Source: Candidatus Woesearchaeota archaeon (lineage in GTDB: Archaea > Nanobdellota > Nanobdellia > Woesearchaeales > ARS49). Taken from it: a DNA stretch of 64,000 nt. Position 1 is the first letter of the stretch. Each line of letters begins with the position of its first letter. The stretch covers positions 56,149-120,148 of the forward strand of contig JAGVZE010000009.1 in NCBI GenBank assembly GCA_018302815.1, in the 5' to 3' direction. Position numbers and translations under genes: made by a program. Below the pieces are notes generated by a model. It saw nothing but the letters and a program-made list of their open reading frames with translations. It was not told the origin of the DNA and searched no databases. This document shows positions 2,079 to 19,577 of this stretch, piece after piece.

Positions 2079-2792
2079 TTAAGCCTGCAAAGGCTGCTCG
2101 GACGCCTGATCGAGCGGCTGTTCATCAGCTTGCTGCTCTTCCTTGCGCTTTGGCATCTTGATTTCAGGAAGCTTGTCAGGAGGCAAAGTAATCTTCAAAC
2201 CAAGCTCTTTGACTTTTTCAACAGGAATCACTTCAAGCATACGAATCTCGCACGCACCCACCGGATAAAGCCTGCGAAGCAATTGAGAAAGGCTTGACTG
2301 AAGCTTCTTTTGAACAATATCACGAATAAGAGTGTCGATATCAGACTGAGAAATAACCTTTGCTATAAACGCGCGCTCAAGCTTCTGCATAGTCGCAAGA
2401 ACGCTGCCAGTCGTGTTGCCTCGAGTCACTATGAGAGGCTTAATACGAATAATCTTCTTATCAGCACTTTCGACAATGAAAGAATCCTCTATCTTATTTC
2501 GCTTGCGACGCATCATCTTCTTTGCGGCCGCAGGAAGAAGCCTGTAACCAGTAAGCTCGGTCGTAACCATATCATTTTGGACGCCGACAATCTTGAAAGA
2601 AACACTGACATTCTGCTTTTGAGGATCGCCAGTCAAAACCATAAGGCTAACAGAAACGCACCTGCCGACAAGGTTGGCAGGTTCCTCGACAAAAGACTCG
2701 CCCAAAAGCTGATCGTTGAAAAGCTTAGGCGCAATAATCGCTACCCAACGCTTTTTTTTAATAATGACTGCTTTCGCAGGAGCTTTTACCAT
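2079..2792 (-). CDS. rps3ae: 30S ribosomal protein S3Ae (eS1)
   Basis: 'KKKRWVAIIAPKLFN' N-terminus and overall length and composition typical of archaeal S3Ae. Acidic low-complexity C-terminal tail. Confidence 0.8.
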   Translation of the reverse strand: MVKAPAKAVIIKKKRWVAIIAPKLFNDQLLGESFVEEPANLVGRCVSVSLMVLTGDPQKQNVSVSFKIVGVQNDMVTTELTGYRLLPAAAKKMMRRKRNKIEDSFIVESADKKIIRIKPLIVTRGNTTGSVLATMQKLERAFIAKVISQSDIDTLIRDIVQKKLQSSLSQLLRRLYPVGACEIRMLEVIPVEKVKELGLKITLPPDKLPEIKMPKRKEEQQADEQPLDQASEQPLQA

Positions 2793-2985
2793 AACGCGAA
2801 CAACACAGCAGGGGGTTTATAAACATTGCGGTCTCAGGCACGGAAGACGGCGGGACGGACGACGGTAGGAAGGCTGGACGGCACGAAGGTAAGACGGAAG
2901 ACGGATGAACGGCAGACGGAAGACAAATGCCTGCTGAACAAAATGTGTCACAATAGTTAAATGCGCAATTGCCCGAAAACAAATC

Positions 2986-4833
2986 GTGAGTTTGAAGAAA
3001 GCAAAAGAATTCCTCAAAAACGCAACCATCGCAGCAGCGCTTTCACTTGGCATCACATCAACTTCTAAAGCACAAGAAACACCCGCACCCGACGTACACG
3101 CCCACGCGAGCGCACACGGATTCGCAGGAGACACACAAGGATTCGGCGCAAGCCTTGACCTTCGAGACAACGACCTTGGAATACGAATAGACTACGCAGG
3201 CTCGCGCGAGTATCCCTTGAGAGAAGAATTCGCAAGCGCAGAAATCAACCTCTACGACATTTACGCAGGAGGCGGAGCGCTAGGAGAAAAATGGGGAGCT
3301 TACGCGGCATACCGCCCAGATTTTCGACTTGGAAACGACACAATCGCTTTGAACACCACGCTAAACCTGAGCGTTGGATACGGAAATGACAACTATGATA
3401 CGCAAGCGCTAACTTCCAAACTATACGCCGCAGGACTTGGCGCGCGCCTAGAACTTGACATCAACCCCTGCAGTTTCATCAACACAAAAATCGGAGCGTT
3501 CATCGAAGGATTCTCTGCAGTCCCGGACGATATCGCATACCAGCCACGCGACATCAACAACAAAAAACACAGATACGAATATTTATCGACAATACTCTCA
3601 CTCTCAGAAGCACGCGCGGGAGCTTACGCCGAAATAAACGCGGCGCTCTATCAAGACAAAGACTCAATAACTCTTCTGACTTTGCGCCACATCGCAGAAA
3701 ACGTACAATGGGACCTGAGCGTTCCAGCACTTCCCAACCTTGAAATAGACTATTTCGAAGACTTTGACATAGAGCCTTACGCAATACGCCACATCACCCG
3801 CGCAGAAATCACCCACGAAAGAAGATTCGGCCCGCTGCACTTTCTTGTCGGACTATTCGCCCAGCACACAATGGGCAGCAGAACATTCGAAACACCCCTG
3901 CACAGAAACGGATTCTCAACAGGAGCCACTTTGCTCTTGGATTACGGCATCGCCGACCTTAGACTCGAAGGAGAAATCTATTCCGCATCACAACTGCGAG
4001 AATACACAAGAAAAGAACCGCGCGCATCAATGCTAGCAGAACTCGGACTATCATTCGGAGGCGAAGAAAACGCCCTTCGCGCATTCACAGGAATCGCAAT
4101 CAACAGGTCGCGCGACGCATTCACGGGTCTTGCACAGGAAGGAACACTATTCTACGCAGGCCTCGCATACGAATTTGGCGCAAGCAGATGCAGATACGAC
4201 GCAGTTGACAACGCGAACATTGTACGCAGCACTTCTGAACGACAATTATACGCCGCGTGGCAAGCGCAAAACGCACCGCCTCAATCGAATGAGCCGAACT
4301 ACGGCGCAATCGTAAGAGAACGCCCAACCACGCCAATCACCATCACGCGCGACGAAGCACAAACCCTCCTTGATGTATTCCGAGGAAAAAAACCATTCAA
4401 CGACGCAAAAACAGTCATCACGCGCAACTCTGACCTCAACCGAATAATAGATGTAGACGCGCTCGAAAACATCTACAACCTAACAGGAAACTTAGACGAA
4501 GGACCAACGAGAGAAGGCATACAAGACAATCTACTAGAATCAGACATGCTCGTAGGATATTCCCAAGAAAACACCACTGTCAACATCTTCAACAACGCCG
4601 CAAGAGAAGACCTTGAACACACAGTCGAAGACGGCATCGTCCTTAGCATAACACCAAACAAAAGCGCGAGAGAGTTAATGGCATCACAAAGAAACAGCAG
4701 AGCGACACTCGTGCTTGGAAGAGACATCTATACTTTAAGAGCGCCCTCGACAGAAGCGTTCATGCGCCTCTTAGGCTATCGAAGCCTTGTAAGCGACCTC
4801 ACTGAACCTCGATTCGAGTTCAGACTACGCTGA
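2986..4833 (+). CDS. secreted protein of unknown function (signal peptide)
   Basis: 615 aa. N-terminal signal-like segment 'KNATIAAALSLGITSTSKAQE'. Rich in G/A/Y/N/D, as in surface proteins. No catalytic motif. Confidence 0.5.
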   Translation: MSLKKAKEFLKNATIAAALSLGITSTSKAQETPAPDVHAHASAHGFAGDTQGFGASLDLRDNDLGIRIDYAGSREYPLREEFASAEINLYDIYAGGGALGEKWGAYAAYRPDFRLGNDTIALNTTLNLSVGYGNDNYDTQALTSKLYAAGLGARLELDINPCSFINTKIGAFIEGFSAVPDDIAYQPRDINNKKHRYEYLSTILSLSEARAGAYAEINAALYQDKDSITLLTLRHIAENVQWDLSVPALPNLEIDYFEDFDIEPYAIRHITRAEITHERRFGPLHFLVGLFAQHTMGSRTFETPLHRNGFSTGATLLLDYGIADLRLEGEIYSASQLREYTRKEPRASMLAELGLSFGGEENALRAFTGIAINRSRDAFTGLAQEGTLFYAGLAYEFGASRCRYDAVDNANIVRSTSERQLYAAWQAQNAPPQSNEPNYGAIVRERPTTPITITRDEAQTLLDVFRGKKPFNDAKTVITRNSDLNRIIDVDALENIYNLTGNLDEGPTREGIQDNLLESDMLVGYSQENTTVNIFNNAAREDLEHTVEDGIVLSITPNKSARELMASQRNSRATLVLGRDIYTLRAPSTEAFMRLLGYRSLVSDLTEPRFEFRLR

Positions 4834-5257: not shown

Positions 5258-5371
5258 GGGCCTGTAGTCTAACGGATAGGATACAGGGCTTCGGACAGCG
5301 CCCTGCGATGATATGAGCACAAGCGTTGGCTAAGACACCCTGCGGTCTGGGTTCGAATCCCAGCAGGCTCG
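5258..5371 (+). tRNA. tRNA-Arg(TCG) with a 42-nt intron at the canonical 37/38 position
   Basis: The acceptor stem GGGCCTG/CAGGCTC pairs with one G-U. The T-arm is CTGGG-TTCGAAT-CCCAG. The anticodon loop is CTTCGGA (U33, anticodon TCG, purine 37). An approximately 42-nt insertion (5295-5336) lies between position 37 and the 3' anticodon stem CCCTG and can form a hairpin, consistent with a bulge-helix-bulge intron. No encoded CCA. Confidence 0.65.
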
Positions 5372-5372
5372 T
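5355..5372. repeat. attL: tRNA 3'-end core sequence 'gaatcccagcaggctcgt'
   Basis: This 18-mer recurs at 18608-18625. A 16-nt subset recurs at 18480-18495, and a 10-11 nt core recurs at 19559-19569. Confidence 0.7.
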
Positions 5373-5433: not shown

Positions 5434-6717
5434 ATGAGACCATTTATCGACCAAAACAAGCGAGTCACCCAAAACCTCACCAGCCTACAAAAAAACGAAG
5501 CCATCAGCCCACAAAACAAGAAAGAGATAGCAGACATGGCTCGCAAGATGTCAAGCGAAGGACTCGCACCCGCAAGCATCGCCAAGTTCATAACGACATT
5601 CCACAACGGACTCGACAAGTGCGCACCGCCCAATTTCAACATGGCGAGCGCAACAGTAGATGAACTGCGCGAGTTTATCATCAACATCCAAAAATCAAAG
5701 TACAGCATCAAGACACAAGCCGAGATAAAGAAAGCCATCAAGAAATACTACAAGGGCAACGATAAGGAGCACCTTGTCAAATTCTTCAAGACAAGCATTC
5801 CGCAAAGCAAGAAGACAGTTCCCAACGAGGGAGATATGTTGACTCTAGAAGAGGTTGAGCGAATGATAACTGCTTGCAAAAATACCCGTGACAAGGCTAT
5901 CATCTCTCTCCTTGCTGAAAGCGGTATGAGAATAGGCGAGCTTGGCGCGCTTCAAATCAAACACGTCAATTTTGACAATCATGGCGCGGTTATCACAGTT
6001 CCTTCTGGAAAGACAGGAGCTAGGCGCATTCGTGTAGTTCAGTGTGAGCGTCACTTGCGTCAATGGTTGATGGACCACCCACACAAAGATAACGATGAGG
6101 ATTGGTTGTGGATAAACTTGAACGCAAGCCAGAAAAGCGCGCTCTATGATAGAATGGATTACGAGTGTATCCGCATGATGATTGTTAAGAAAGCGATAGA
6201 CGCGCAAGTTAGAACATACAAAGTACGAACTGTTGAAGATAAGAAGAGTCATAAACTTAGAGATGTTTATCGTACAAAGGTTCACCCGCACTTGTTCAGA
6301 CATACTGCCGCGACTCGGCTTGCCAAGTTTATGACTGAGCAACAACTCAAGATTTATCTTGGGTGGACTGCGGGTAGTGATATGGCGAGCGTGTACGTTC
6401 ACTTGTCTGGTAAGGATGTTGATGATACCGTGTTGAAGATGAACGGGTTGCAACCAATGGAAACGCAGGTTGAGAGCGTGCGGTGTCAGGCTTGTGGTAG
6501 GATGAATGCGTCTGAGAGTTCTTCTTGTAACACTTGTTTTAGACCTTTGAGTGTTAAAATGGCTTTGGTGAATGAGGAGCGTGAGAAGCACGCTTCGAAA
6601 GTTTTGGAAGCTATCATGTCAGGTGAGTTGAGTGTTGAAGAAATCAAGGCGTTCACATCAAAGCAGAAGAAAGCGAAAGTTTTTATCGAGCAACCAACTA
6701 ACGAGGGGTTAGTATGA
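5434..6717 (+). CDS. int: tyrosine recombinase/integrase
   Basis: 'HLFRHTAATRLA' is the HxxR box and '...ASVYVHL' the catalytic Tyr region. 'ESGMRIGELGALQ' is the Arg-I region. The C-terminus carries a CxxC...CxxC zinc-ribbon extension. Located next to a tRNA. Confidence 0.85.
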   Translation: MRPFIDQNKRVTQNLTSLQKNEAISPQNKKEIADMARKMSSEGLAPASIAKFITTFHNGLDKCAPPNFNMASATVDELREFIINIQKSKYSIKTQAEIKKAIKKYYKGNDKEHLVKFFKTSIPQSKKTVPNEGDMLTLEEVERMITACKNTRDKAIISLLAESGMRIGELGALQIKHVNFDNHGAVITVPSGKTGARRIRVVQCERHLRQWLMDHPHKDNDEDWLWINLNASQKSALYDRMDYECIRMMIVKKAIDAQVRTYKVRTVEDKKSHKLRDVYRTKVHPHLFRHTAATRLAKFMTEQQLKIYLGWTAGSDMASVYVHLSGKDVDDTVLKMNGLQPMETQVESVRCQACGRMNASESSSCNTCFRPLSVKMALVNEEREKHASKVLEAIMSGELSVEEIKAFTSKQKKAKVFIEQPTNEGLV

Positions 6718-6880
6718 AGAAAGAAATGCCTGTTTTGAATTTGAGACTGCTCGGAAAGACTTTCCGAATTTTCACATACGAAACATTGATGCGCAGGAAC
6801 AAACTCTGAACTTTGTATGGGTAGCTCGCAATAAAACGCTGACATAAGTATATATTTCAAAGCCCTTAACAGTTTGATAC

Positions 6881-9800
6881 ATGGTTGTTCCCAGTCTCCA
6901 GAATTATTCTATTGAGCGTTTGAATAAAGAAATCGCTCAGAACCAGCAACTTATCAGTGAATTACGAGGTCGTGCTGGTCAAGCTAAACGGATTGAGGGC
7001 GCGTCAAAAGGAATTCAACTTCTCCAACTTGAACTTACTTCTCGTCAGATTCAGCAACAGGCGGACGAAGGCATTATTTCTCAAGCTCAAGCTTCGGGTT
7101 TGATACAAGCTAGAGCGTCCAGCACACAAGCGAGTACGAAGCAAGCACCACTAAGCCCTTACGAACGCGCATTCGGACCCGCCAGCTTAACACGACAAGC
7201 AATATTAGCAAAGCCAACAGCACTGCAACAATTAGGCGGTGCGCCGTCACAAATCCAATTCCAAACCATCCCCCGAGAAGTGACATACAAAGTTGGAGAG
7301 CGATTCGGCGAACCAGTCCTAGTCACGCGAAGAGAACAAGCAACGCAAGCACTCCTGCCGTTCGGCAAACTTCAATTCGGCATTCCAGCAAGCCTAGCAT
7401 TCAGCCAAAAAGCACAGCTTGAAGGCATCCCCACCATCACAGACACCAGAGGTATCACCTTAACCGAACAGGGCGAGTTACGCGCTCGCCCAACAACTCG
7501 TTTCGAAAGCCAAACAGAAAAACAACTCCGAGAACAAGTACCGATGGCAAACCGAGCAGTGTTCGAAGCAGACATAACAAAAGAACCTCGCATTCCAGCA
7601 CGAGTCTTAACAGAAACAGAACAACGCGCACTCTTCGCGCCAGCATTCCAAACCAAAGCGAGCATACTAAGCCCACTACTCCAACGACGAGTGGAAGAAC
7701 TTTCACAACCAGAAACCCAACGACCATCCCCTTTCATAGAGCCAACACCAGAAGTGGGGTTGAGTTTTGATTTTCAAAGACAAATACTTGCAAGCCTGCC
7801 TCGACTTGTTGAGCAAACCGCGCAAGAACAAGGCATCACTCCACTCACCAAGTTCACTCGTAAAACTGATTTTTTCAACGCAAAAGAGTTCGGTGGTGAA
7901 ATTCGAAGCATCAGCGAAGAAGTAAATAAAGCCGTTGATTTTGAAAAACTCCTCGCGAAAGCAGGCATCAAAACATCAATACCAAGCAAGGCGATAAGTT
8001 TTGAAGAGTTCAAACTCGTCCCCCTCGTCAAAAAAATAACTCGACCAGAAGAAACTCGACAAAAGCTTCTCAAAGACATTGAGCAAACAGAAAAACTATC
8101 ACCTGCTCTTGCTAAGATAGAACGAGCGTTTGCAGATATTGAGTTCGGAGCGAGAGAGTACGCGAGCAGACCCAGCAACATAGCACTGACCGCCCTTACT
8201 GGTGGAGCGTTCGGACTTGCAGAAAAAGGCGCGCTGGCTGGACTGACTATTTTCAAAGGCGCAACACAAGCCGAAAAAGCGATAAGTAACATTAACAAAA
8301 TACTTCTTGGAGCAACAGCAGGACTTGAAGGTTTACGCATAGCGACAAGCAAGAAGCCTTTTGAAGAAGTCGGAGCCTTGCCATTCAAGCTCATCGCGTT
8401 TGGCGCAGGAGCACAAGCGACGAAAACACTTCTCACACGACAACCTTCAAGGGTTCAAGTTGGTGAGACTTTAATTTTGGAAAAACAAACCATTCCAACA
8501 AGCGAAGGACTGGTTCAAGTCCGAGGAACAGCTATCACTCCTGCTAAAATAACTAGAGTCAGCCCGATAGAAAAAATGTTGACAGACTTACGGTTCAAAC
8601 TCGAAGTTGGAAAAACAGAAGAGTTCAAAATCGTCCGACAGTTCAAAGGAGAAATCAAAATTGCTCGAGAAGAAAAAGTTGACTTGTATGGAGGTGGCAA
8701 AATCGTAAGTGAGAACTTGCGAATAGCAAAAGTCAGCGCGGAAATATTCTCGCAAAACTTGAAAGGCGAACTCGCAAAGTTCGCAGAACAATTAGCTGTT
8801 ATAACCTCATCAGGTCCGTCGGGAGCGAAGGCGTTAGGACAACTAAGAATTCGACGAGTGCGAAAAGGAAAACTCACGCAGAGCATTTTTGAACAAATCG
8901 CGGACATCCAACCATCAGAGATAGGGGGGGTTAGGGTTGTTACTGGAACTGCGAGGCTTCCAGCGATAAAAGGAAAAGTCAGGCGAGAACAGCCTTTCTT
9001 TGAAATTGGCGCGGTTGAAAAGTTCAAACCGCCAAGCCGTCAAAAAATTACTGACATTTTCGAAACAAACATTCGAGAACTGGCAGACAATCTTGACGCG
9101 AGCCTAAGAACTTTAACATTGAAGGAGACACCGCCGCGCAAGCCGTCCAAAAAAACAGTTGAAGAACTATTATCAATACTCCCTCAAGAAAGAGTTTTTT
9201 TCCGTGCGCGAAAAAGAGAAATAACGGCACGACAATTAGAAAAACGTTTCAAAGGAGCCGTTGTTAAACTCCCAAGTAAAGGAGCTTTCAAAGACGCATT
9301 AACTAGAGCGTGGGGCAAAAAAGGACAGTTCATTTTAGGACAGCCGAGTCGCATATCGACAGGCATCAGTCCACGCCCTGCGATAGAACCTGAATCGTTG
9401 AAAGTGAGCATTGATAGAGCACTCTCGCCGTTCCGAACGTTTCAAGTCCCGAAACAAGCTCTTTCACTAGCGTTCGAAAGAGATGTTAGTTTCACCACGC
9501 TCGCGCCAACACAAATTGAAAGAATAGCTCCTTCCAGACTAGCTGAACTTCCCAGACTGCAAACTCGAACGCTTCAAGATGTTGGAACTCAAACTGGTAA
9601 CGCTATCGCAACAATCGTTCAAGGCTTGGAAAAAACTTTGACAGGAACCAAGCCAATAGAAGGCATCAAAATTAAGACGATAACAGGACCGACAGCGCGA
9701 CCGATAGAAATAACCACGCCAGTCACAGGCGCAGGAACAGGAACCACTCCAGCCACAACGCCAAAAGAAGGAACAACCCCCAGACCACGAGGCGAGACAG

Positions 9801-10156
9801 GAACAGGCTTCCAGTTCAGAGAACGACCTTTCGAACCGCCAACACTTCCACTTTTTCCGCCTTTCTTTTTAGGAGGCGGTGGCGGTAGCGAAGAGAGAAG
9901 ACAACAACAACGCTATCCTAGAGCACCAACTCGTCGCGCTCCTAGTTTGTTGGGCTTGTTTTTAGGCAAAAAAGGAATACCGAAAGGAAAACTCACTGGG
10001 CTGGAAATTCGAGGTTTACCAAGAAGCGTTCGGCGCAAACAGTTCGAAATTGAAGGGCGAGACAGGCTTGACTTTGGAATATTAGAACGCAATTTGAAAA
10101 AAGCTTTGGGTATCTCAAAAGTTAAAAAAGGAAAGAGAGGTAAGAAAAAACGATGA
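6881..10156 (+). CDS. large low-complexity protein of the integrated element (candidate structural or DNA-binding protein)
   Basis: 1091 aa. The N-terminus is coiled-coil-like. The protein is rich in Q/T/E/K/R/P. The C-terminus has a TPxTTP stretch, a GGGGGSEERRQQQR segment and a strongly basic tail (KVKKGKRGKKKR). No TM segment and no enzymatic motif. Confidence 0.5.
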   Translation: MVVPSLQNYSIERLNKEIAQNQQLISELRGRAGQAKRIEGASKGIQLLQLELTSRQIQQQADEGIISQAQASGLIQARASSTQASTKQAPLSPYERAFGPASLTRQAILAKPTALQQLGGAPSQIQFQTIPREVTYKVGERFGEPVLVTRREQATQALLPFGKLQFGIPASLAFSQKAQLEGIPTITDTRGITLTEQGELRARPTTRFESQTEKQLREQVPMANRAVFEADITKEPRIPARVLTETEQRALFAPAFQTKASILSPLLQRRVEELSQPETQRPSPFIEPTPEVGLSFDFQRQILASLPRLVEQTAQEQGITPLTKFTRKTDFFNAKEFGGEIRSISEEVNKAVDFEKLLAKAGIKTSIPSKAISFEEFKLVPLVKKITRPEETRQKLLKDIEQTEKLSPALAKIERAFADIEFGAREYASRPSNIALTALTGGAFGLAEKGALAGLTIFKGATQAEKAISNINKILLGATAGLEGLRIATSKKPFEEVGALPFKLIAFGAGAQATKTLLTRQPSRVQVGETLILEKQTIPTSEGLVQVRGTAITPAKITRVSPIEKMLTDLRFKLEVGKTEEFKIVRQFKGEIKIAREEKVDLYGGGKIVSENLRIAKVSAEIFSQNLKGELAKFAEQLAVITSSGPSGAKALGQLRIRRVRKGKLTQSIFEQIADIQPSEIGGVRVVTGTARLPAIKGKVRREQPFFEIGAVEKFKPPSRQKITDIFETNIRELADNLDASLRTLTLKETPPRKPSKKTVEELLSILPQERVFFRARKREITARQLEKRFKGAVVKLPSKGAFKDALTRAWGKKGQFILGQPSRISTGISPRPAIEPESLKVSIDRALSPFRTFQVPKQALSLAFERDVSFTTLAPTQIERIAPSRLAELPRLQTRTLQDVGTQTGNAIATIVQGLEKTLTGTKPIEGIKIKTITGPTARPIEITTPVTGAGTGTTPATTPKEGTTPRPRGETGTGFQFRERPFEPPTLPLFPPFFLGGGGGSEERRQQQRYPRAPTRRAPSLLGLFLGKKGIPKGKLTGLEIRGLPRSVRRKQFEIEGRDRLDFGILERNLKKALGISKVKKGKRGKKKR

Positions 10157-10674
10157 GTGTTAGCTGGCTGAGCAGAATGCTTGCAGTGGCTGCGAAAGAT
10201 GAACTTGTCCTAGCGCAAGCTAAGAAAAACAAGCTCACAATTTATGGTGCTAGAGCGATTCAAAAGCGTTTGGGTTTTTTGAGCCGTCCAACTTATGACT
10301 ATGATGTTTCAGCACGACATCCACAGCGTGAAGCTCGCTTGTTGGAAAAACAGCTTGACAGGATTGCTCAGGGTGACTTGTTTTTTTCGCGTCCGAGCGA
10401 GTTTCATAAAGGAACGCACAAAGTTATTTATGCAGGCTGGGACAACAAGCGAGAAACGAAAGATGACGTTGGCATCGCAGATTTTTCTCGCACTGGAAAA
10501 ATTTGCAGTCAAGCGATAGACGGAGTGAGGTACGCTTGTTTGTCAGCAGTCGAAAAGGACAAGCGCAAAGCGTTATCAAGCAAAGAGTTCGCTTTCAGGC
10601 ATAAGAAGGACGCTGAAGACCTAGAACGCATCAAAATTTACAAGCGAACGTTTGGGTACAGGAGGCGACGATGA
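10153..10674 (+). CDS. hypothetical protein (element)
   Basis: 173 aa. ATGA-type overlap with the upstream gene. Basic C-terminus. Confidence 0.4.
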   Translation: MSVSWLSRMLAVAAKDELVLAQAKKNKLTIYGARAIQKRLGFLSRPTYDYDVSARHPQREARLLEKQLDRIAQGDLFFSRPSEFHKGTHKVIYAGWDNKRETKDDVGIADFSRTGKICSQAIDGVRYACLSAVEKDKRKALSSKEFAFRHKKDAEDLERIKIYKRTFGYRRRR

Positions 10675-11637: not shown

Positions 11638-12174
11638 TCAGGGTGTGCTGGTTGAGGAGTCCAAAACCACACCCCCCTTTTCCTTCTTGGGACGACCACC
11701 TCGCCATTGACCAATGTTGCGTCTTCGCTGAATGCCTGCTTTAGTACGCTCGCTTATCTTGCGCCGTTCCTCGCTCGCCGACCACGCCATGATAGAAAGA
11801 ATCACGTCACCTATCGGGTTATCATTCCCAGTATCAAGCCAGCTTTCCGTAAGACTCTTAACGCCCACGCCGCGCTCTCTGAGCTTCTGCACGCGCCCAA
11901 CAGCGACAAACATAGGCTCACGGCTGAACCTGTCGAACTTCCATACCAGAATGGCTTGGAAGCGTAACAACATCGCGTCTTGAAGCATCTGTCTGAACTG
12001 TGGACGGTTTGGGTCCGCACCACTTCCCCTATCAACGTACTCGTTCACTATTTGCCATTGCTTGTTAATTACCCATTGCCTTAACGGTTCAAGTTGGTTC
12101 TCTGGCTCTTGATACCTGCGGTCTTCTTTGTTTGTCTCATCCAAACTCACGCGAGCATACAAACAAACCTTCAT
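11638..12174 (-). CDS. serine recombinase (resolvase/invertase catalytic domain)
   Basis: 'CLYARVSLDE' carries the YARVS nucleophile motif near the N-terminus. The resolvase-fold length is about 140 aa, followed by a short basic 'GRPKKEKGG' tail. The HTH domain is reduced or absent. Confidence 0.65.
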   Translation of the reverse strand: MKVCLYARVSLDETNKEDRRYQEPENQLEPLRQWVINKQWQIVNEYVDRGSGADPNRPQFRQMLQDAMLLRFQAILVWKFDRFSREPMFVAVGRVQKLRERGVGVKSLTESWLDTGNDNPIGDVILSIMAWSASEERRKISERTKAGIQRRRNIGQWRGGRPKKEKGGVVLDSSTSTP

Positions 12175-12189
12175 TTCGGGTTACACCTG

Positions 12190-12262
12190 TTCTTAACGTA
12201 TCTTTGGCAGGCGTAACGCCACGCTAATAACGCTAATAAGCCTGAAAACATCGCTAATAAGA
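12190..12262. repeat. iteron-like direct repeats CGCTAATAA x3 plus the inverted repeat GGCGT-A-ACGCC
   Basis: 'ggcaggcgtaacgccacgctaataacgctaataagcc...atcgctaataag' lies in the intergenic region between the serine recombinase and the ATPase gene. Confidence 0.5.
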
Positions 12263-12277
12263 AAAACAGCGCGACAA

Positions 12278-13207
12278 TCAAGCAGTATCACCGCCCGTCA
12301 TCCCTGACTTTTCCCGTTCTGATTCTAGGTTACTAACAGTATGAACGCCAACCATTGAGTCTTTGAAACGTGATATTGTACCCTGTACCATGTCTTTTGA
12401 CACTTTTTCACCAGAAAACTTGCTCAAAGCCAATGCTAACTGAGGTTGAGTCCAGCCTTTCTCACTCAAAACCACCATCAAGCTTCCCAAACGATTCAAA
12501 AGCTTCTGAGCAAACTTGTCAGGCTTCTTATCAAGCATCGCCAGCGCGTCAAGCTTACGCCGTTCATACTCTGCGTCATCGAAAGGAAAGAACTTTGTGA
12601 ACGCATCTCGAAAGTCGGGCTGAATGCGCGACGAATAATCCTTTTTGCCCGCAAGGTACAAGCTTTGCTTTCGAGGATACGAGTAAAACTTGAAGAAACC
12701 ACGTTGCAAACGTGTCCCTGCTGGTTTGGTGTACACTTCAATCAAACAACGACTACGATACACCGCGAGATACTTGTCAACCTCGAAAAAGTTTGCGATG
12801 CAAAACAACAAGATGAGTTGTCGGCTCCTGCAAGTTGTCAAAAGCCAAACGAGCCTTTTGTTTTCCGTGCTCATCGAGCCACGACTTGATGCTGTTGCGT
12901 ACGCTTCATCAAATAGTATCACGGTGAACGGCGGAGCCTTCAAAACTAATCTTTGCAAGCTTTCAAAGTCATAACATAAACTTTCAAGCGTGAACGTTGG
13001 CGTTCTTTTGTATCCTTTGCTGATAGCGATGCTTTCACACAACGTGCCCACTTGACAAGCCAGAGTGCTTTTGCCTTCGCCCTCACGACCGCTGAACAAA
13101 AGCACGCCGTCAAACTTATCCGCGACAAGCTCAACAACTGCGTTAAGATTACTGAACAGGTATCCTGAACAGTATACCTCTTGCCCGTTGTGTAATTTTG
13201 TTTTCAT
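12278..13207 (-). CDS. P-loop NTPase (Walker A GREGEGKST, Walker B ILFDEAY)
   Basis: 309 aa. Walker A and Walker B motifs in an AAA/Zot-like arrangement. Located in the mobile element, so possibly a packaging, replication or partition ATPase. Confidence 0.55.
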   Translation of the reverse strand: MKTKLHNGQEVYCSGYLFSNLNAVVELVADKFDGVLLFSGREGEGKSTLACQVGTLCESIAISKGYKRTPTFTLESLCYDFESLQRLVLKAPPFTVILFDEAYATASSRGSMSTENKRLVWLLTTCRSRQLILLFCIANFFEVDKYLAVYRSRCLIEVYTKPAGTRLQRGFFKFYSYPRKQSLYLAGKKDYSSRIQPDFRDAFTKFFPFDDAEYERRKLDALAMLDKKPDKFAQKLLNRLGSLMVVLSEKGWTQPQLALALSKFSGEKVSKDMVQGTISRFKDSMVGVHTVSNLESEREKSGMTGGDTA

Positions 13208-13605
13208 TTCAGCATCGCAACGCTCGGGTTCTCCAGCTCACTCATCAACAAGCCATGTTTTTGCATCAAGTCCCGCAAGAGTTTTTCAAAACTATCAATG
13301 GCTTTGTACGCTTCAAAACCTTTCAGTCCAGTTTCGTGATTGCGCTGGTCGGGGTTACGTAAGCGTAAGACACCATTATAAGCGTTGGTCTTGCGTTGCG
13401 CTTCTGTCTCACTATCACTTGCGCGCTGGCGTTCTTCAACGTTCAAGAAGGGGTATAACTCGCGGTGAACGCTTGTGAGCGTTTGATGCCATTCGGGGAA
13501 CTTTCTCGCAGTCGAACACTGGTTTGACAGCTGTAGGAGCTTGTCAATTCTTTGAAGCGTTGCCTGCGCGCTATTCCAAGAGCTTATACCAAAATCAGCA
13601 CTCAC
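13204..13605 (-). CDS. hypothetical protein (element)
   Basis: 133 aa. Overlaps the neighbouring gene by 4 nt. Confidence 0.35.
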   Translation of the reverse strand: MSADFGISSWNSAQATLQRIDKLLQLSNQCSTARKFPEWHQTLTSVHRELYPFLNVEERQRASDSETEAQRKTNAYNGVLRLRNPDQRNHETGLKGFEAYKAIDSFEKLLRDLMQKHGLLMSELENPSVAMLK

Positions 13606-13991
13606 GAGAAGCTCAAACCTCGGCGAGTTGTTTTTTTATCTTGCGAATTTTGCCCGCGTATTTTGAAGATATTTTTTTCATCTGTCGTCACCTCTTCTTT
13701 TCTTTTAGGAGTAAAATATCCATTCACGTCCTTACCGCATCGCTCGCCTCTGGGAAGAATTCTCAAACGAACACCACCACACTCGCACTGAAGCGCAAAA
13801 GTTTTCATACAAGAAAAACAACCAGCCCAACGGCTTTCGTAAACAATGATGCTCTTGTGGTAACTCTTCGGCGGAACCTTTCCGCAGTGCCTGTGCTTGT
13901 CAACGTAACGGCTTCGCAGAACTGGCTTGTTGCAAAAACGGCACTGCCTAAGAGAAGTTTGATGCACGAGTTCATACTTTGCGCGAGTCAT
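13602..13991 (-). CDS. Cys-rich zinc-finger protein (element)
   Basis: 129 aa with several CxxC / C..H..C clusters. Confidence 0.4.
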   Translation of the reverse strand: MTRAKYELVHQTSLRQCRFCNKPVLRSRYVDKHRHCGKVPPKSYHKSIIVYESRWAGCFSCMKTFALQCECGGVRLRILPRGERCGKDVNGYFTPKRKEEVTTDEKNIFKIRGQNSQDKKTTRRGLSFS

Positions 13992-14636
13992 TCAAACACG
14001 ACCGCGATGTTTTGCGAAAGACGCTTCAAGCTCTTCGGGTGAAAGTTCAGTTGCAGAGTCGAACATCACCATGAAGTCCTGCGGGGTCATCGCCATAAGT
14101 CGGTTCCATGTCATGTTGTCTGCGAGTGGTGGTCCAATGATGAACTTGTTTTTCGGCTGGAATTCGGGCTTGCGAAACCATATCTCGCACATCTGACAAA
14201 CGTTGTGGCGTTTGCAGAATAACCACTGCGTCCCCATGAGACCACAGAAATAACAAAGCTCTTTCGGCTTAACTTCATCGCGTTCAAAAAGACTCATTCT
14301 CTTTCTCCATGTGGCGATGTCTTCAGGTGAGAGTTTGAATTTATAGTTTTGCTTATGACAGTGCGAGCCTCGCAAGCTGGTCTCTTCCGAAGTCATGCCA
14401 ATATCTGCGCCGTGAACGTGCTGCCTTTTGCAGAACGGGCAGTCCACTTGAACGCGGAAGAACCGCGAGCCGTCAAACGCCGTTTCAAGCCCAATGATGC
14501 GCGCTATCACTACAAAAACGCTTAATTGTTCGGCTCTTATAAACCGCCCGCAACACGCGCAATTCTCTGGCGGTTCGCCCTTCATACAGTACGGGTTTGC
14601 GCAATCTCGCTCGCATGGACAACCACTCATTTTCAA
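13992..14636 (-). CDS. Cys-rich protein (element)
   Basis: 214 aa with more than 20 Cys in CxC/CxxC arrangements. Confidence 0.4.
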   Translation of the reverse strand: MKMSGCPCERDCANPYCMKGEPPENCACCGRFIRAEQLSVFVVIARIIGLETAFDGSRFFRVQVDCPFCKRQHVHGADIGMTSEETSLRGSHCHKQNYKFKLSPEDIATWRKRMSLFERDEVKPKELCYFCGLMGTQWLFCKRHNVCQMCEIWFRKPEFQPKNKFIIGPPLADNMTWNRLMAMTPQDFMVMFDSATELSPEELEASFAKHRGRV

Positions 14637-14778: not shown

Positions 14779-15765
14779 TCATAATTTATCCCTCATTGCG
14801 ATGAACTGAAGTACGCGGTACGGTACTTTGTCTTTTTTCCCGCAAAGACCGCGATGCCACGCCTGCTTGACGGCGTGATAAAGTGCTTCATCGTTACCTT
14901 CGTAACGGCTTCGCCCGCCATTATGCGGCGTGCCTGCGTCTTCGCAACCCAAAAAACCACTCTCAACACAAAGATATTGTTGCGCGTTCAATGACACAAT
15001 GTGTCGCCAACAATGCCCCAAGCCCCCACTAACGCTCCAGTTTTTCCCCGTGTTTTCGCTTCCATGTAAGGGGTGCGGGACTCTGCCACCCTTCAAACCC
15101 GCAGAGCACACGTCCCTGATTGTTAATTCATAAAATGCACTTTTACGACCCCCCTTCTGATAAGTTCGCGGAACAGGCGCAGTTCTCTCAAGCTCGATGT
15201 TTTCCTGATGTCTTTCGCGGAATACGGGCGGGAGTTCATCGAAGGTGATGTTTGTAGGCATCGTTGCGACCTCAACAGTGTAACGTCCCGCGCTCGCTTT
15301 CAGCTCTTCAGGTAATGTGTTGATGTGTTCTTGGCTTCGCGGAACGTAACTGCCAGCGCAGACGACGTACTGCCAAATCGACCTGACTTCCCCTGACCCG
15401 CCTGTTGGAATGTTCGGTATCTTCTTACCTTCTGGCTGAAAATAGAATGCGTGAAAACCAACGCGCTTACTCGAACGGCTCGTCAAGGTCGGCTTCAATT
15501 TTTCCAACGGTGTTTTCTGGATGTCATCAACGTCAACGATGACCAGCCCGTCAAGGTCAGTCCCCGCTATTCCGATGTTGTATCCCACCTTCAAAAGTTG
15601 AACTGCCTGCTGAACTGTCAGCCTCGCTTTTTTCCACGAACCACTCACGCATGGGTCTTTGCCATTCTTCAACAAGCGGAACAAAAACGGTTCGTATGTC
15701 GCAGGCATTCCCTGTTTCAGGAGCGTGATGAACTTCAAAAACTCATCAGGACACGTCGCATTCAT
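14779..15765 (-). CDS. bifunctional primase-polymerase (PrimPol-domain) protein
   Basis: 'DLDGLVIVDVDD' resembles the PrimPol catalytic D.D motif region. Translationally coupled to the upstream D5-like helicase by a 4-nt overlap. Confidence 0.55.
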   Translation of the reverse strand: MNATCPDEFLKFITLLKQGMPATYEPFLFRLLKNGKDPCVSGSWKKARLTVQQAVQLLKVGYNIGIAGTDLDGLVIVDVDDIQKTPLEKLKPTLTSRSSKRVGFHAFYFQPEGKKIPNIPTGGSGEVRSIWQYVVCAGSYVPRSQEHINTLPEELKASAGRYTVEVATMPTNITFDELPPVFRERHQENIELERTAPVPRTYQKGGRKSAFYELTIRDVCSAGLKGGRVPHPLHGSENTGKNWSVSGGLGHCWRHIVSLNAQQYLCVESGFLGCEDAGTPHNGGRSRYEGNDEALYHAVKQAWHRGLCGKKDKVPYRVLQFIAMRDKL

Positions 15766-17792
15766 TCGAGCACCTTCAACTTATGGGGATTAACCTGAAC
15801 AACCGTGTTTTTGATTAACGCGAGGGATACTGCGCCCTCACCAACCTCTTTCACCACGACATCATACTCTGCGCCCTCACCCAAGTCCAAACGGCGAACG
15901 ACACCCCCCACAAGTTCAGATAACGCGCAGTCTTCACAATACGGTTTTCCCGACCTTTGGTACGAGCAAGGCGACCCAGCACAGCCAATACAAGGGTGGT
16001 GTGTGATGTCAGTCTTTTCAAAACCTGCATTGAACAGAAGTGAGGGAACGCCCTGCTCGACCTGCCCGCCCTGCCCAGTTGGGTTGGGTGGTCTGGGCGG
16101 GCAGTGTGATTTTCTATTATCGTCTACTTTTTCATTATTTACTATATTTTTATCATTATTTACTATATTTTTATCATTTCCCTGTGTGTCAAGAGAGTGA
16201 TTTTCTGCCACCCCACCGTGCCCGCCCTGCCCATTTGTTCGTGGTCGTTCTTTTTCCCCCTGTTCTGACTGTTCGAAAAGCTTAGCTTGGTTATCTTCCG
16301 TGTTATCTTCATTTTCTTCTTTTTTCGCGGTTTTCAATTTAATTCCGCGAACATAATGAACACGTTTTTCACTTTTTTCAATCCGTTTTTTTATCGACCG
16401 CGTGTACGATGCCTTTGCGTACAATTTTTTGAAAAAATCGTTTTCATCGAAACATTCAATTTCGCGGTCGTCGCAATAATCGCGGTACGCGAAGTAAACA
16501 TCATCCTTCAATTCTTTTTCATCATCCGCTTTAATCGTGCAGTCCATAACGAAACACAAAACGGGGTCGGTTTTTCGAAGGTATATTTCGCGGGTTTGCG
16601 CGACCTCCGCGCCGAACCCTTTGGCGTTCAATAATTCGTTTAATCCGTCCAAAGCGAAGTTCAACATTCCCGACAATTCGTTCGGCGTTGTGATTTTTTC
16701 ACTTTTTTTGGTATCCGCATTTTTTTCTTCAAATTTTTGTTTGAATAAAATCAAAATTGGTCTGCGCCACATCGCCGTGTCATCCTCGGGTAATTGCGGT
16801 AATTCGTTCGCCGAAAACGCGAGTTTCGCGTACACATTCAAATTAACATGCGCGCCGAATTTGTATTCCCCTGTGATTGTGTCCCCGCCCGTAATCGTTT
16901 TTATCGTTGACACGGATTGTTTATCTAAATTTTTCCCCGAAATGTCGGGCACGATGTTCGCCAGTTTACCGTGAAGGTTCACGACCGAAAATCGGTCGCG
17001 CATATTGTGCGGGCTTATCGTGCTGATGTTTTTTTGCCCGATGAATTTCGTCATTGCGCGAAGCAGTGTTGATTTTCCGTTCGCGCCCTCGCCTTCAAGC
17101 ATTAAAAAATTGGCGAATCGGTAATCGCGCAGTAAGGTATATCCAAACCATTTTTTTAATACTGCCCTGTCGTTTTGTTGTGTTGTGGGTAGGATTTCTT
17201 CGAGGAATTTTTCGAACTCTGGACATTTGGCGTTGGAGTCGTATTTCACGTCAATTTTTTGTAAAAACGGCGTTTCGGGGGTGTGCGGTGTTATTTTTTT
17301 GGTGAACACGTTTAATATTCCGTTTTGCACGCAGAAAAGTTCGGGTGGTGCTTCGGGAAATTCGGTTTTGCACGTCATGGAATATATTTTTGATGTGACT
17401 TCGTTTTTCATATTTCGCGTGGCGAACGCGCCGAGAATTTGTTGTACCAATAAATTTATTTTTTGTTTTCCGTTGGGCGTGTAATATCCGTTTTCGTAAA
17501 CGTAAATTGTCGGGCGGTCGGGGTCGCCGATGCTGATGAAATGTTGCGTTGTTAATATCGCGTCTGCGGTTTCCTGCGCGATTTCTGCCGTGCTTTTTTC
17601 GCGGTCGCTCGCATCATCGATGCCTTCGGCGCGTAATATTTTCACTGCATCTTTTTTCTGTTTTTTATTTAATTCTTTTTTCTGTGTGGGCTTCTCGTTT
17701 TTCGCTTTTTTCGTTTTTTGTGTTGAAGGTTTTGTTGGCTTGACTGCTGTTTTTCGTGGTGATGTCTTTTTGAGCTTAGTTTTCTTAACCAC
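15762..17792 (-). CDS. D5/P4-family primase C-terminal domain plus SF3 helicase
   Basis: 676 aa. 'FLMLEGEGANGKSTL' is the Walker A in the context of a P4-type primase-helicase. The N-terminus is Lys-rich. The C-terminus has a Cys cluster (CIGCAGSPC...CEDC) and a tandem DKNIVNN repeat. Confidence 0.75.
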   Translation of the reverse strand: MVKKTKLKKTSPRKTAVKPTKPSTQKTKKAKNEKPTQKKELNKKQKKDAVKILRAEGIDDASDREKSTAEIAQETADAILTTQHFISIGDPDRPTIYVYENGYYTPNGKQKINLLVQQILGAFATRNMKNEVTSKIYSMTCKTEFPEAPPELFCVQNGILNVFTKKITPHTPETPFLQKIDVKYDSNAKCPEFEKFLEEILPTTQQNDRAVLKKWFGYTLLRDYRFANFLMLEGEGANGKSTLLRAMTKFIGQKNISTISPHNMRDRFSVVNLHGKLANIVPDISGKNLDKQSVSTIKTITGGDTITGEYKFGAHVNLNVYAKLAFSANELPQLPEDDTAMWRRPILILFKQKFEEKNADTKKSEKITTPNELSGMLNFALDGLNELLNAKGFGAEVAQTREIYLRKTDPVLCFVMDCTIKADDEKELKDDVYFAYRDYCDDREIECFDENDFFKKLYAKASYTRSIKKRIEKSEKRVHYVRGIKLKTAKKEENEDNTEDNQAKLFEQSEQGEKERPRTNGQGGHGGVAENHSLDTQGNDKNIVNNDKNIVNNEKVDDNRKSHCPPRPPNPTGQGGQVEQGVPSLLFNAGFEKTDITHHPCIGCAGSPCSYQRSGKPYCEDCALSELVGGVVRRLDLGEGAEYDVVVKEVGEGAVSLALIKNTVVQVNPHKLKVLE
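16131..16175. repeat. tandem direct repeat and flanking G-rich inverted repeats inside the helicase gene
   Basis: 'ttactatatttttatcattatttactatatttttatcatt' is a 21-22 nt unit repeated twice. Next to it, 'ctgcccgccctgcccag...ctgggcgggcag' forms an inverted repeat (16056-16100), and 'gcccgccctgccca' recurs at 16223. Confidence 0.6.
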
Positions 17793-18479: not shown

Positions 18480-18495
18480 ATCCCAGCAGGCTCGT
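18480..18495. repeat. attR1: 'atcccagcaggctcgt' copy of the tRNA 3' end
   Basis: 16/16 match to 5357-5372. Confidence 0.7.
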
Positions 18496-18607: not shown

Positions 18608-18625
18608 GAATCCCAGCAGGCTCGT
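18608..18625. repeat. attR2: 'gaatcccagcaggctcgt' second copy of the tRNA 3' end
   Basis: 18/18 match to 5355-5372. The flanking 't.taa.tt' is partly conserved as well. Confidence 0.7.
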
Positions 18626-18714: not shown

Positions 18715-19539
18715 ATGGTCAATTCGAATGAGTTACGTTGGGTCGGTTTAGAACTGGATTGGTGCGGGGAAGGTTTTTCTCCTTATTCAGATGGGCGTTC
18801 GCTTTGCTATTCGTCTGGCTTGAAAGGAGGTTATTGTTTGATACATTCGCCGTCGGATGATAATTCGTTCAGAGATTTTGATCGGCTTCAAGATGGATCC
18901 ATAGTGATTTCCTCATTGCTTGACTTTTATGAAAGAGATTGGCTAGGGGCTGCTGCTTCAGGAGCGATATGGACCGATTACTCTTCAAAAGATGTCCCTA
19001 TGATGCGGGCAAAGCTTGAAAAGGAACTTATTATGAAAACTCCTGATGGTCGTCATTTTGTTTGGTTAACAGAACCAAAGCCATATGTGTCTGATGTAAC
19101 GAGCGCATTTTTGCGAAAAGACATCGCCGACTTGCTAACGAGTTCAGAAGGAGATCTTTCAACTGCATTATTCTCTGGAATAAGGGTGTATGGGGAGTTG
19201 CACAAAAGAGGACTCATATTGCAAGGTTCAGATAATGATCTTAAACTGAAAAGAGTGCAATGGGAAAAAACTGCGCTTAACTCATATGATGCGCAATTAG
19301 GTCATTTTTTGCGAACAGGCGAAGGAAAGGAAGCAATAGACAAATTAACTTACGGTGTTCAGATCTTTTGCGGCGTAGATCAAACAAGACTGCGTCGTCT
19401 ATTGACTTATGATGGTGCAGCCTTTCAACAGAATCTGGAGCGAATTGCAGTATTGTATTACAAAAATGATGTGAGCGCGCTTCAAAACGACCTTGAGCAG
19501 TTGAAGCAGGAATTGAAGGGAACTTCTAAACGAGCTTAA
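18715..19539 (+). CDS. hypothetical protein, between att copies
   Basis: 274-aa ORF with no motif recognised. It lies between attR2 and the partial att3. Confidence 0.4.
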   Translation: MVNSNELRWVGLELDWCGEGFSPYSDGRSLCYSSGLKGGYCLIHSPSDDNSFRDFDRLQDGSIVISSLLDFYERDWLGAAASGAIWTDYSSKDVPMMRAKLEKELIMKTPDGRHFVWLTEPKPYVSDVTSAFLRKDIADLLTSSEGDLSTALFSGIRVYGELHKRGLILQGSDNDLKLKRVQWEKTALNSYDAQLGHFLRTGEGKEAIDKLTYGVQIFCGVDQTRLRRLLTYDGAAFQQNLERIAVLYYKNDVSALQNDLEQLKQELKGTSKRA

Positions 19540-19558
19540 GAGTTATTCTACAAAGCAC

Positions 19559-19569
19559 GGCAGGCTCGT
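19559..19569. repeat. partial att-like copy 'ggcaggctcgt' with a flank similar to attR1
   Basis: 'agttattctacaaagcacggcaggctcgttttcatttc' (19541-19578) resembles 'agttattttaaccatcccagcaggctcgtttcatttt' (18468-18504). Confidence 0.5.
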
Positions 19570-19577
19570 TTTCATTT

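Follow-up and report, generated by a model that had tools for sequence, protein, structure and literature searches.

Plasmid replicons that carry the ATPase of spindle-shaped viruses are known, or have been proposed, to be satellites packaged by a helper virus, as in the case of pSSVx, pSSVi and the SRCEs, and satellites of the SRCE type include elements in DPANN Nanohaloarchaeota (bioRxiv 10.1101/2025.02.15.638363). The combination of a hairpin coat protein with an AAA+ ATPase is the signature of spindle viruses (bioRxiv 10.1101/2021.07.29.453957). Here, we describe an integrated element of 13.1 kb from a Candidatus Woesearchaeota archaeon and ask what its largest gene, coding for an orphan protein of 1091 amino acids, might do. 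The element lies in a 64,000-nt stretch of DNA (contig JAGVZE010000009.1, positions 56,149 to 120,148, assembly GCA_018302815.1), which was analysed as a whole and is called the window below; coordinates refer to the window unless another contig is named. Like pSSVx and pSSVi of Saccharolobus and the SRCEs of haloarchaea and nanohaloarchaea, the element combines a primase-helicase replicon with a spindle-virus AAA+ ATPase, and all of them share an incomplete morphogenetic module; pSSVi, like the window element, also carries an integrase. Unlike the 13.1-kb window element, however, these satellites measure 2.7-9 kb and lack a 120-kDa protein, and their hosts differ from the groundwater Woesearchaeota archaeon considered here.

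The window element is best interpreted as a hybrid of plasmid and virus, comparable to pSSVx and pSSVi, in which the 1091-residue protein would be the second gene of viral origin. For the protein itself, we tentatively favour a role as a virus-derived virion protein or packaging adaptor on such a hybrid; at less than even confidence, this is still the most likely assignment, because its tail is shared with proteins on virus-like contigs that encode an ATPase of the lemon-virus type. The gene and the segments of its product are as follows:

6881-10156, plus strand: gene for the 1091-residue protein (ATG start, 1091 codons and a stop codon; open reading frame (ORF) confirmed)
6849-6857, plus strand: TATA-like box TATATATTT, ~28 nt ahead of the ATG, read directly
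6911-7075, plus strand: N-terminal long helix, coiled-coil-like, residues 11-65 (AlphaFold pLDDT 60-70)
8171-8440, plus strand: Gly/Ala-rich, moderately hydrophobic segments of GxxxG type, residues 431-520, with the highest Kyte-Doolittle windows
8405-9028, plus strand: weak internal duplication, residues 509-583 against 647-716 (self-comparison, 29% identity over 80 residues, E 0.001)
9821-10018, plus strand: conserved C-terminal module, residues 981-1046, the only part with demonstrable homologues
9989-10015, plus strand: nonapeptide KLTGLEIRG, residues 1037-1045 (TGLEIRG identical in five of five family members, preceded by K[LF])
10112-10153, plus strand: polybasic C-terminal tail ISKVKKGKRGKKKR, read from the sequence

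A sequence-only reading of this DNA had presented the protein as the largest, Q/T/E/K-rich cargo of an integrated element, encoded just downstream of the integrase, with a coiled-coil-like N-terminus, long low-complexity stretches, no transmembrane (TM) segment and no recognisable fold. Most of this description holds. The ORF is the longest stop-free frame in the window (the runner-up has 858 codons), and in 200 shuffles of the window the longest open run averaged 174 codons and never exceeded 272; an uninterrupted frame of 1091 codons is far beyond chance. It is the largest gene of the element and begins 163 nt downstream of the tyrosine integrase gene, and its status as cargo has gained precision, as the element is now bounded by attachment (att) repeats at a tRNA gene. 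An identical protein has been deposited as MBS3148039.1 (hypothetical protein, Candidatus Woesearchaeota archaeon). Because the TATATATTT box lies about 28 nt ahead of the ATG, the gene may have its own promoter, and the spacing suggests a leaderless or near-leaderless mRNA.

The protein has a mass of 120 kDa, an isoelectric point of 10.3 and a net charge of +66. Measured against the window's own ORFs, the absence of Cys (P ~4e-10) and His (P ~5e-12) is extreme; there are one Trp and three Met. The claimed composition proved correct in that Q, T and E, together with P, are enriched over the window background, but the commonest residues are L and A. Similarly, low complexity is real but confined to residues ~900-1000, where the entropy over 50 residues drops to 2.98-3.23 bits, compared to 3.26-3.8 bits elsewhere, the value of 3.26 belonging to the C-terminal 41-residue block. 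The segments that had been singled out are all present: TPATTPKEGTTPRPRGETGTG at residues 955-975, GGGGGSEERRQQQRYPRAPTRR at residues 998-1019 and the basic tail KVKKGKRGKKKR at the very end. The maximum Kyte-Doolittle value over 19-residue windows is 1.11, which fits the absence of a TM segment. Structure prediction, which had been proposed as a check, did not yield a usable fold: in an AlphaFold run made without an alignment, the mean pLDDT was 37, the low-confidence model was mostly non-helical, and the helix at residues 11-65, consistent with the coiled-coil-like N-terminus, was its sole moderately confident part.

Nothing was found for the protein in Pfam, NCBIfam and PADLOC, nor in the PDB, whether by sequence or by C-terminal profile; PHROGs returned a single match below significance (E 0.0096), so that the verdict of no recognisable fold stands. 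Neither the protein nor its homologue on contig L014 had a tblastn match among 50,697 phage and virus records and 72,556 plasmid records. A word-indexed protein search retrieved only the protein itself. When 1.84 billion representative proteins were scanned exhaustively with HMMER, two matches were obtained: P0004, a fragment 94% identical to the query, and P0005 (463/474 residues, on a 2-kb contig of the same ANAN16 sample series), which was found with an E-value of 8.6e-8 and aligns solely to residues 957-1067. A tail profile built from two sequences then recovered a 64-residue fragment ending in KSKLTGLEIRGI. This is the last part of a large gene that a run of N obscures on the 30%-GC contig L009 (10.6 kb); N runs at 2124-3403 and 6764-9301 cover much of that contig and with it most of the homologue. 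A gappy tail profile of five sequences found nothing. A scan of metagenome DNA for the pattern K[LF]TG[LF]EI[RS]G gave 32 loci, mostly chance matches in cellular enzymes, with five that are clearly related, including L014, L039, L019 and L034, the last two of which match L009 over the stretch read. The check for homologues in viral metagenomes, which had been proposed earlier, was made on IMG/VR with protein profiles and with DNA motifs, one of them a relaxed motif-plus-stop pattern, and no family member turned up in that collection. The GTDB representative genomes likewise hold no family member, all 21 motif matches being chance occurrences in cellular enzymes. In sum, no cellular housekeeping family was matched, and no relative was found outside mobile or virus-like contexts.

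The proteins with the K[LF]TGLEIRG tail, i.e. the window protein, P0005 and those of L014, L039 and L009/L019, appear to constitute an undescribed family. Their shared tail consists of a P/F-rich stretch, a Gly run, a basic stretch, [AS]PS[LI]xG and K-x-K[LF]TGLEIRG; in the window protein, the order across residues 981-1046 is a P/F-rich stretch, GGGGG, a basic stretch, APSLLGL and KGKLTGLEIRG. The L014 protein has 778 residues with the motif near its end, and the L039 protein 798 residues with the motif at residue 789. Three members stop one residue after LEIRG, with [AS]PSLTGL ahead of the motif, whereas an extension of ~45 residues past the motif is found only in the window protein and P0005, the two groundwater members. 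The four full-length proteins are free of Cys, poor in His and Trp, and carry net charges of +46 to +83. They also share an order of segments, from a variable N-terminal part through Gly/Ala-rich hydrophobic segments, a basic region and a simple linker to the tail; we read this likeness in composition and layout as resemblance, not as proof of homology, and by blastp the similarity is confined to the tail, with nothing upstream. Segments comparable to the Gly/Ala-rich region at residues 431-520 are also present in L014, L039 and L009, and residues 431-457 of the window protein weakly echo the C-terminal module (BLAST against residues 398-425 of P0005, 48% over 29 residues, E 0.27). What had been an unalignable orphan is in this way becoming a member of a small family, whose hallmark is a single, sharply conserved peptide at the C-terminal end and a constant linkage to a morphogenesis ATPase.

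The contigs that carry the L014, L039 and L009/L019 relatives are AT-rich and virus-like, and their big gene lies in a structural-looking module. Downstream of it, both L014 and L039 encode a soluble protein of 183-186 residues followed by several multi-TM proteins, and L014 additionally a 990-residue glycoprotein with a signal or anchor sequence. L019 encodes multi-TM proteins as well, together with a 209-residue soluble protein that is comparable, by eye, to the 183-186-residue ones. Further features of these modules are:

L019 3167-7723, minus strand: large glycoprotein of 1518 residues with Laminin_G_3, CBM5_12 and sialidase-like N-terminal domains
L039 5648-6230, minus strand: tandem paralogous two-helix hydrophobic proteins of 82 and 104 residues, just upstream of the big gene
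L019 within 9108-9464, minus strand: similar two-helix hydrophobic protein of 72 residues, near the big gene

The 1518-residue protein is probably the receptor-binding adhesin of its virus-like contig. The two small L039 proteins are 70% identical to each other and have a weak match to a 'major coat protein' PHROG (E 0.024).

A second gene that the window element has in common with these contigs codes for an ATPase:

12278-13207, minus strand: AAA+/P-loop ATPase of 309 residues, spindle-virus morphogenesis type (phrog_5484, E 0.0017; phrog_38691)

This AAA+ morphogenesis ATPase is B251/pI/Zot-like and has no TM domain. By blastp, it is related to the ATPases of L014 (E 6e-7) and L039 (E 8e-7), which match each other at 7e-37, and the ATPase whose gene is placed divergently beside the big gene on L009 aligns to it by hhalign with an E-value of 1.6e-5. 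As the window, L014, L039 and L009 all carry a homologous ATPase, the big protein and the ATPase travel together at every locus with enough flanking sequence; the 2-kb contig of P0005 is too short to show the linkage. The ATPase of L014 has one match to phrog_5484 ('DnaA-like') at 1.2e-11 and another to Zot. The PHROG table names no source viruses for phrog_5484, which we take to be the fusellovirus B251 family. Among the 50,697 virus records, the only tblastn match of the window ATPase was Thermococcus prieurii virus 1 (TPV1; E 2e-6), and that of the L014 ATPase was Haloferax virus LSV-48N (E 1e-23). Both are lemon-shaped viruses, and IMG/VR scans with the ATPase again found only TPV1. The suggestion in the sequence-only reading that the protein could be a new virion component is thereby supported indirectly, via sole relatives that sit on virus-like contigs with a morphogenesis ATPase of the lemon-virus type; each of the three assembled contigs also encodes membrane proteins and a large glycoprotein, and two encode candidate hairpin coat proteins.

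From these observations we infer a model in which the protein would be an extended, largely unstructured and very basic component on the morphogenetic side of lemon- or spindle-shaped archaeal viruses. Its N-terminal long helix would serve in oligomerisation, its many Lys and Arg residues (net +66) and polybasic tail would hold the DNA of the element, and the Gly/Ala-rich amphipathic segments could touch a lipid-containing shell or membrane. The tail is the one strongly constrained part of the protein and the ATPase its one constant companion, for which reason we propose that the tail docks onto the assembly machinery: the C-terminal module (P/F-rich, GGG, APSLxGL, K[LF]TGLEIRG) would act as a docking peptide that couples protein and DNA to it. 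The AAA+ morphogenesis ATPase is the prime candidate for the docking partner, being the only other protein common to all loci, and the coat of a helper virus is the alternative. Since the element has its own replicon, consisting of PrimPol and a superfamily 3 (SF3) helicase, as well as an integrase, and no coat or membrane protein, it would behave in a pSSVx-like manner, persisting as a plasmid or in integrated form and relying on a helper virus for packaging, like pSSVx, pSSVi or the SRCEs.

In a bolder form, the tail would be a new signal for virion incorporation or ATPase docking from a deep-branching group of lemon-shaped archaeal viruses, which the Woesearchaeota element would have captured as part of a DNA-coating protein of 120 kDa, enabling an integrated plasmid without a capsid to load its DNA into helper particles. 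We regard this full scenario as rather unlikely. If true, the element would be a satellite equipped with a genome chaperone of its own, and the first of this sort among non-halophilic DPANN archaea. The hybrid reading as such would add groundwater Woesearchaeota to the range of plasmid-virus hybrids of the pSSVx/SRCE type. If, on the other hand, the docking idea is wrong, the gene would still be neither a tape measure nor a defence or cellular gene, and its relatives would still be virus-linked.

The two lemon-shaped viruses themselves offer a comparison. TPV1 gp21 (884 residues) is encoded directly after the ATPase and before two ConA-like adhesins, and CDS0015 of LSV-48N (824 residues) adjoins two hairpin proteins (LSV-48N = L066, 7518-8053, minus strand). 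Like the 1091-residue protein, both fall into the range of 800-1100 residues, are Cys-free and are encoded near the same ATPase family. They share its order of a coiled coil, a Gly/Ala-rich hydrophobic segment, a Pro-rich stretch with PF/GG and a basic C-terminal end, and they adjoin genes for coat-like hairpin proteins or adhesins. Unlike the family, however, neither has the K[LF]TGLEIRG motif, and CDS0015 is acidic overall rather than basic. An acidic overall composition is usual for haloarchaeal proteins. In virion preparations of LSV-48N, the entry P_03685 (679 residues) is abundant, with 52 peptides and 81% coverage, and the particle proteomics also detects the ATPase (PMC12714723).

Several points weigh against the assignment of the 1091-residue protein to particles or packaging. 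Demonstrable homology is limited to the ~45-110 C-terminal residues; when the upstream 340-460 residues of the two sub-groups were compared with each other, hhalign gave a probability of 0.1%. As the upstream parts carry no signal, shuffling could have placed the C-terminal module at the end of proteins that are otherwise unrelated. The comparison with gp21 and CDS0015 yielded no significant similarity to the family (blastp E >0.3; hhalign probability <1%), so that the LSV-48N proteomics transfers by analogy only, and even there it is from gene order that we equate P_03685 with CDS0015, assuming that the start was called differently. The two-helix proteins of L039 and L019 are weak candidates for hairpin coat proteins. 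For the host of the window element, neither a candidate helper virus nor a virion, excised circle or CRISPR link came to light. Finally, the gene shows no DNA difference among its seven metagenome copies, and no contig is on record for the 94%-identical fragment P0004, which leaves no variation from which to estimate selection by the ratio of non-synonymous to synonymous substitution rates (dN/dS).

It is conceivable that the protein instead belongs to the plasmid side of the element, as a large coiled-coil DNA binder that compacts, partitions or tethers the element's DNA in the cell and plays no part in a particle. The element is plasmid-like, with its PrimPol, helicase and resolvase and without coat or membrane proteins, and the isoelectric point of 10.3, the net charge of +66, the polybasic tail and the N-terminal long helix would all suit such a protein. 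There is also a precedent in the large orphan coiled-coil proteins of Thermococcales plasmids and of the spindle virus PAV1: one such orphan is common to PAV1 (ORF898) and pTN2-type plasmids (PMC3543421). Like the 1091-residue protein, PAV1 ORF898 and the proteins of pTN2, pCIR10 and pIRI48 are coiled-coil orphans encoded by the largest gene, with primase-encoding plasmids as their setting, but they show no tblastn similarity to it in the phage and plasmid collections. More generally, none of the 72,556 plasmid or 50,697 virus records holds a sequence similar by tblastn, and the only relatives sit in structural-looking blocks of virus-like contigs, together with large glycoproteins and membrane proteins and, on two contigs, with candidate coats. 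For a DNA-compacting protein, as the sequence-only reading had also suggested, only the charge speaks; with the K/R tail it would permit DNA binding, and no DNA-binding domain was detected in Pfam or NCBIfam. We consider a pure maintenance function possible, though unlikely.

A different kind of explanation would see in the gene a fast-evolving ORF without a conserved function beyond the tail, either a lineage-specific anti-defence or host-interaction protein or a decaying remnant. Outside the C-terminal module the protein is indeed an orphan, its predicted order is low, and only one population carries the gene. An open frame of 1091 codons far exceeds what chance would leave, however, and the extreme composition common to all members, with no Cys and a strongly basic character, points to a common physical constraint; PADLOC, which does not cover anti-defence genes, gave no match. 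This explanation appears doubtful to us. Still more doubtful is a precursor that is cut at LEIRG, in which case the motif would serve for maturation instead of docking, and cleavage would free the basic tail of the two groundwater members and perhaps internal fragments. It would account for the fact that three members end one residue past LEIRG while the window protein and P0005 run on for ~45 residues, and an internal echo, FGGEIRSIS at residues 336-344, resembles VGGDIRSIS in L014; but these echoes are insignificant (E >1), the case is one of sequence pattern, and family scans found no protease gene in the element.

That the protein might be tape-measure-like, as the sequence-only reading had also suggested, can be dismissed as highly improbable: although it shares with the tape-measure and ejection proteins lambda gpH, T5 pb2 and T7 gp16 the long, extended character, a rank as largest gene that is frequent among them, Gly-rich hydrophobic segments and a conserved, partner-docking end (strongest conservation here being at the C-terminus), it has no tape-measure family match in Pfam, PHROGs or NCBIfam, AlphaFold models it, at low confidence, as mostly non-helical, capsid, head and tail genes are all missing from the 13-kb element, and the gene neighbours are wholly different, since in place of tail modules the relatives adjoin membrane proteins and an ATPase of Zot/B251 type. 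Two further identities were rejected. A terminal protein for protein-primed replication is ruled out by the absence of a family-B polymerase and the integrative nature of the element, and an adhesin or S-layer protein by the absence of a signal peptide, of Cys and of any lectin or beta-sandwich match, as well as by the separate large glycoproteins of the relatives, including the one with lectin domains in L019.

The virion or packaging assignment preferred here places the protein in an element with the following boundaries and genes, in addition to the big gene and the ATPase gene given above:

5258-5371, plus strand: intron-containing tRNA-Arg, the integration target (Rfam RF00005, 50.7 bits, E 2.4e-8)
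5357-5372, plus strand: attL core ATCCCAGCAGGCTCGT, equal to the T-arm and acceptor 3' end of the tRNA (direct-repeat family D2)
5434-6717, plus strand: tyrosine integrase, 427 residues (PF00589, E 1.1e-17; phrog_1, E 4e-30)
10153-10674, plus strand: basic ORF of 173 residues, whose ATG overlaps the stop codon of the big gene (ATGA)
11638-12174, minus strand: serine recombinase, resolvase domain (PF00239, E 4.6e-32)
13602-14636, minus strand: two neighbouring Cys-rich ORFs of 129 and 214 residues, with multiple CxxC pairs and a zinc-finger-like look
14779-15765, minus strand: Prim-Pol primase-polymerase (PF09250, E 1.1e-6)
15762-17792, minus strand: D5-like SF3 helicase (PF19263, 1.4e-18; PF08706, 7e-11)
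18480-18495, plus strand: attR core ATCCCAGCAGGCTCGT, a 16-nt repeat

The element is bounded by the recurrence of the last 16 nt of the tRNA at 18480-18495, and the start-to-start distance from attL to attR is 13,123 nt. The tRNA was overlooked by ARAGORN and found by Rfam; read by eye, it has the anticodon TCG and an intron of ~42 nt after position 37. Beyond attR, there is a perfect 18-nt att-like copy at 18608-18625, 113 nt past attR, and a degenerate one at 19541-19571, ~1 kb past it, with an ORF of 274 residues (18715-19539) between these extra copies. In the same region, 18637-18654 matches the 3' end of the integrase gene (6582-6599) over 18 nt. Together, the extra att-like copies and the integrase-end match suggest remnants of earlier or tandem integrations.

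Immediately downstream of the big gene, the 173-residue ORF has no family or PDB match and an AlphaFold pLDDT of 38 in a run likewise made without an alignment; it contains a G-x(n)-DYD stretch that recalls minimal nucleotidyltransferases. The element also encodes ORFs of 99 and 91 residues and has three small ORFs, two of them Cys-rich. The Cys-rich ORFs of 129 and 214 residues had no family match; zinc-finger proteins are common in archaeal viruses and plasmids. Among the genuine ORFs of the element, none has a TM helix or the hydrophobic alpha-helical hairpin of a major coat protein that a complete spindle- or lemon-shaped virus (Fuselloviridae-, Halspiviridae- or Wyrdviridae-like) would have; the hydrophobic ORFs are without exception shadows in antisense to real genes. 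Portal, terminase, HK97 capsid, tail tube, chaperone and baseplate genes were not found in the 13-kb element by Pfam, PHROGs and NCBIfam, and PADLOC matched neither the big protein nor its neighbours, apart from one sub-threshold match on the ATPase. Within the coding region of the D5 helicase, an AT-rich tandem repeat of 21 bp (16128-16178, 2.5 copies) is flanked by 19-nt GC-rich direct repeats at 16063-16081 and 16219-16237; the repeats at 16063-16237 could be an embedded replication origin or regulatory site.

Several assemblies labelled ANAN16 or SRR, which we take to be Rifle aquifer groundwater samples, contain the locus without change. The sole population variation seen in the element, with the big gene invariant, is a short indel/variant stretch in L003 and L007, located between the resolvase and ATPase genes near 12168-12211. 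Two independent metagenome contigs, L005 and L006, break ~40-55 nt past attL (at ~5411 and ~5428), which is compatible with a branch in the assembly graph where integrated and empty or excised forms coexist. The flanking genes code for the archaeal ribosomal proteins S17e and S3Ae, a RIO-type kinase and arginyl-tRNA synthetase. Upstream of the kinase gene lies a toxin-antitoxin pair of VapB and a PIN-domain VapC (844-1477; L002 3964-4597), called in one assembly and not in the others. Further along the window, a 99-bp tandem repeat at 36091-36295 (2.1 copies, 75% matches) is unrelated to the element.

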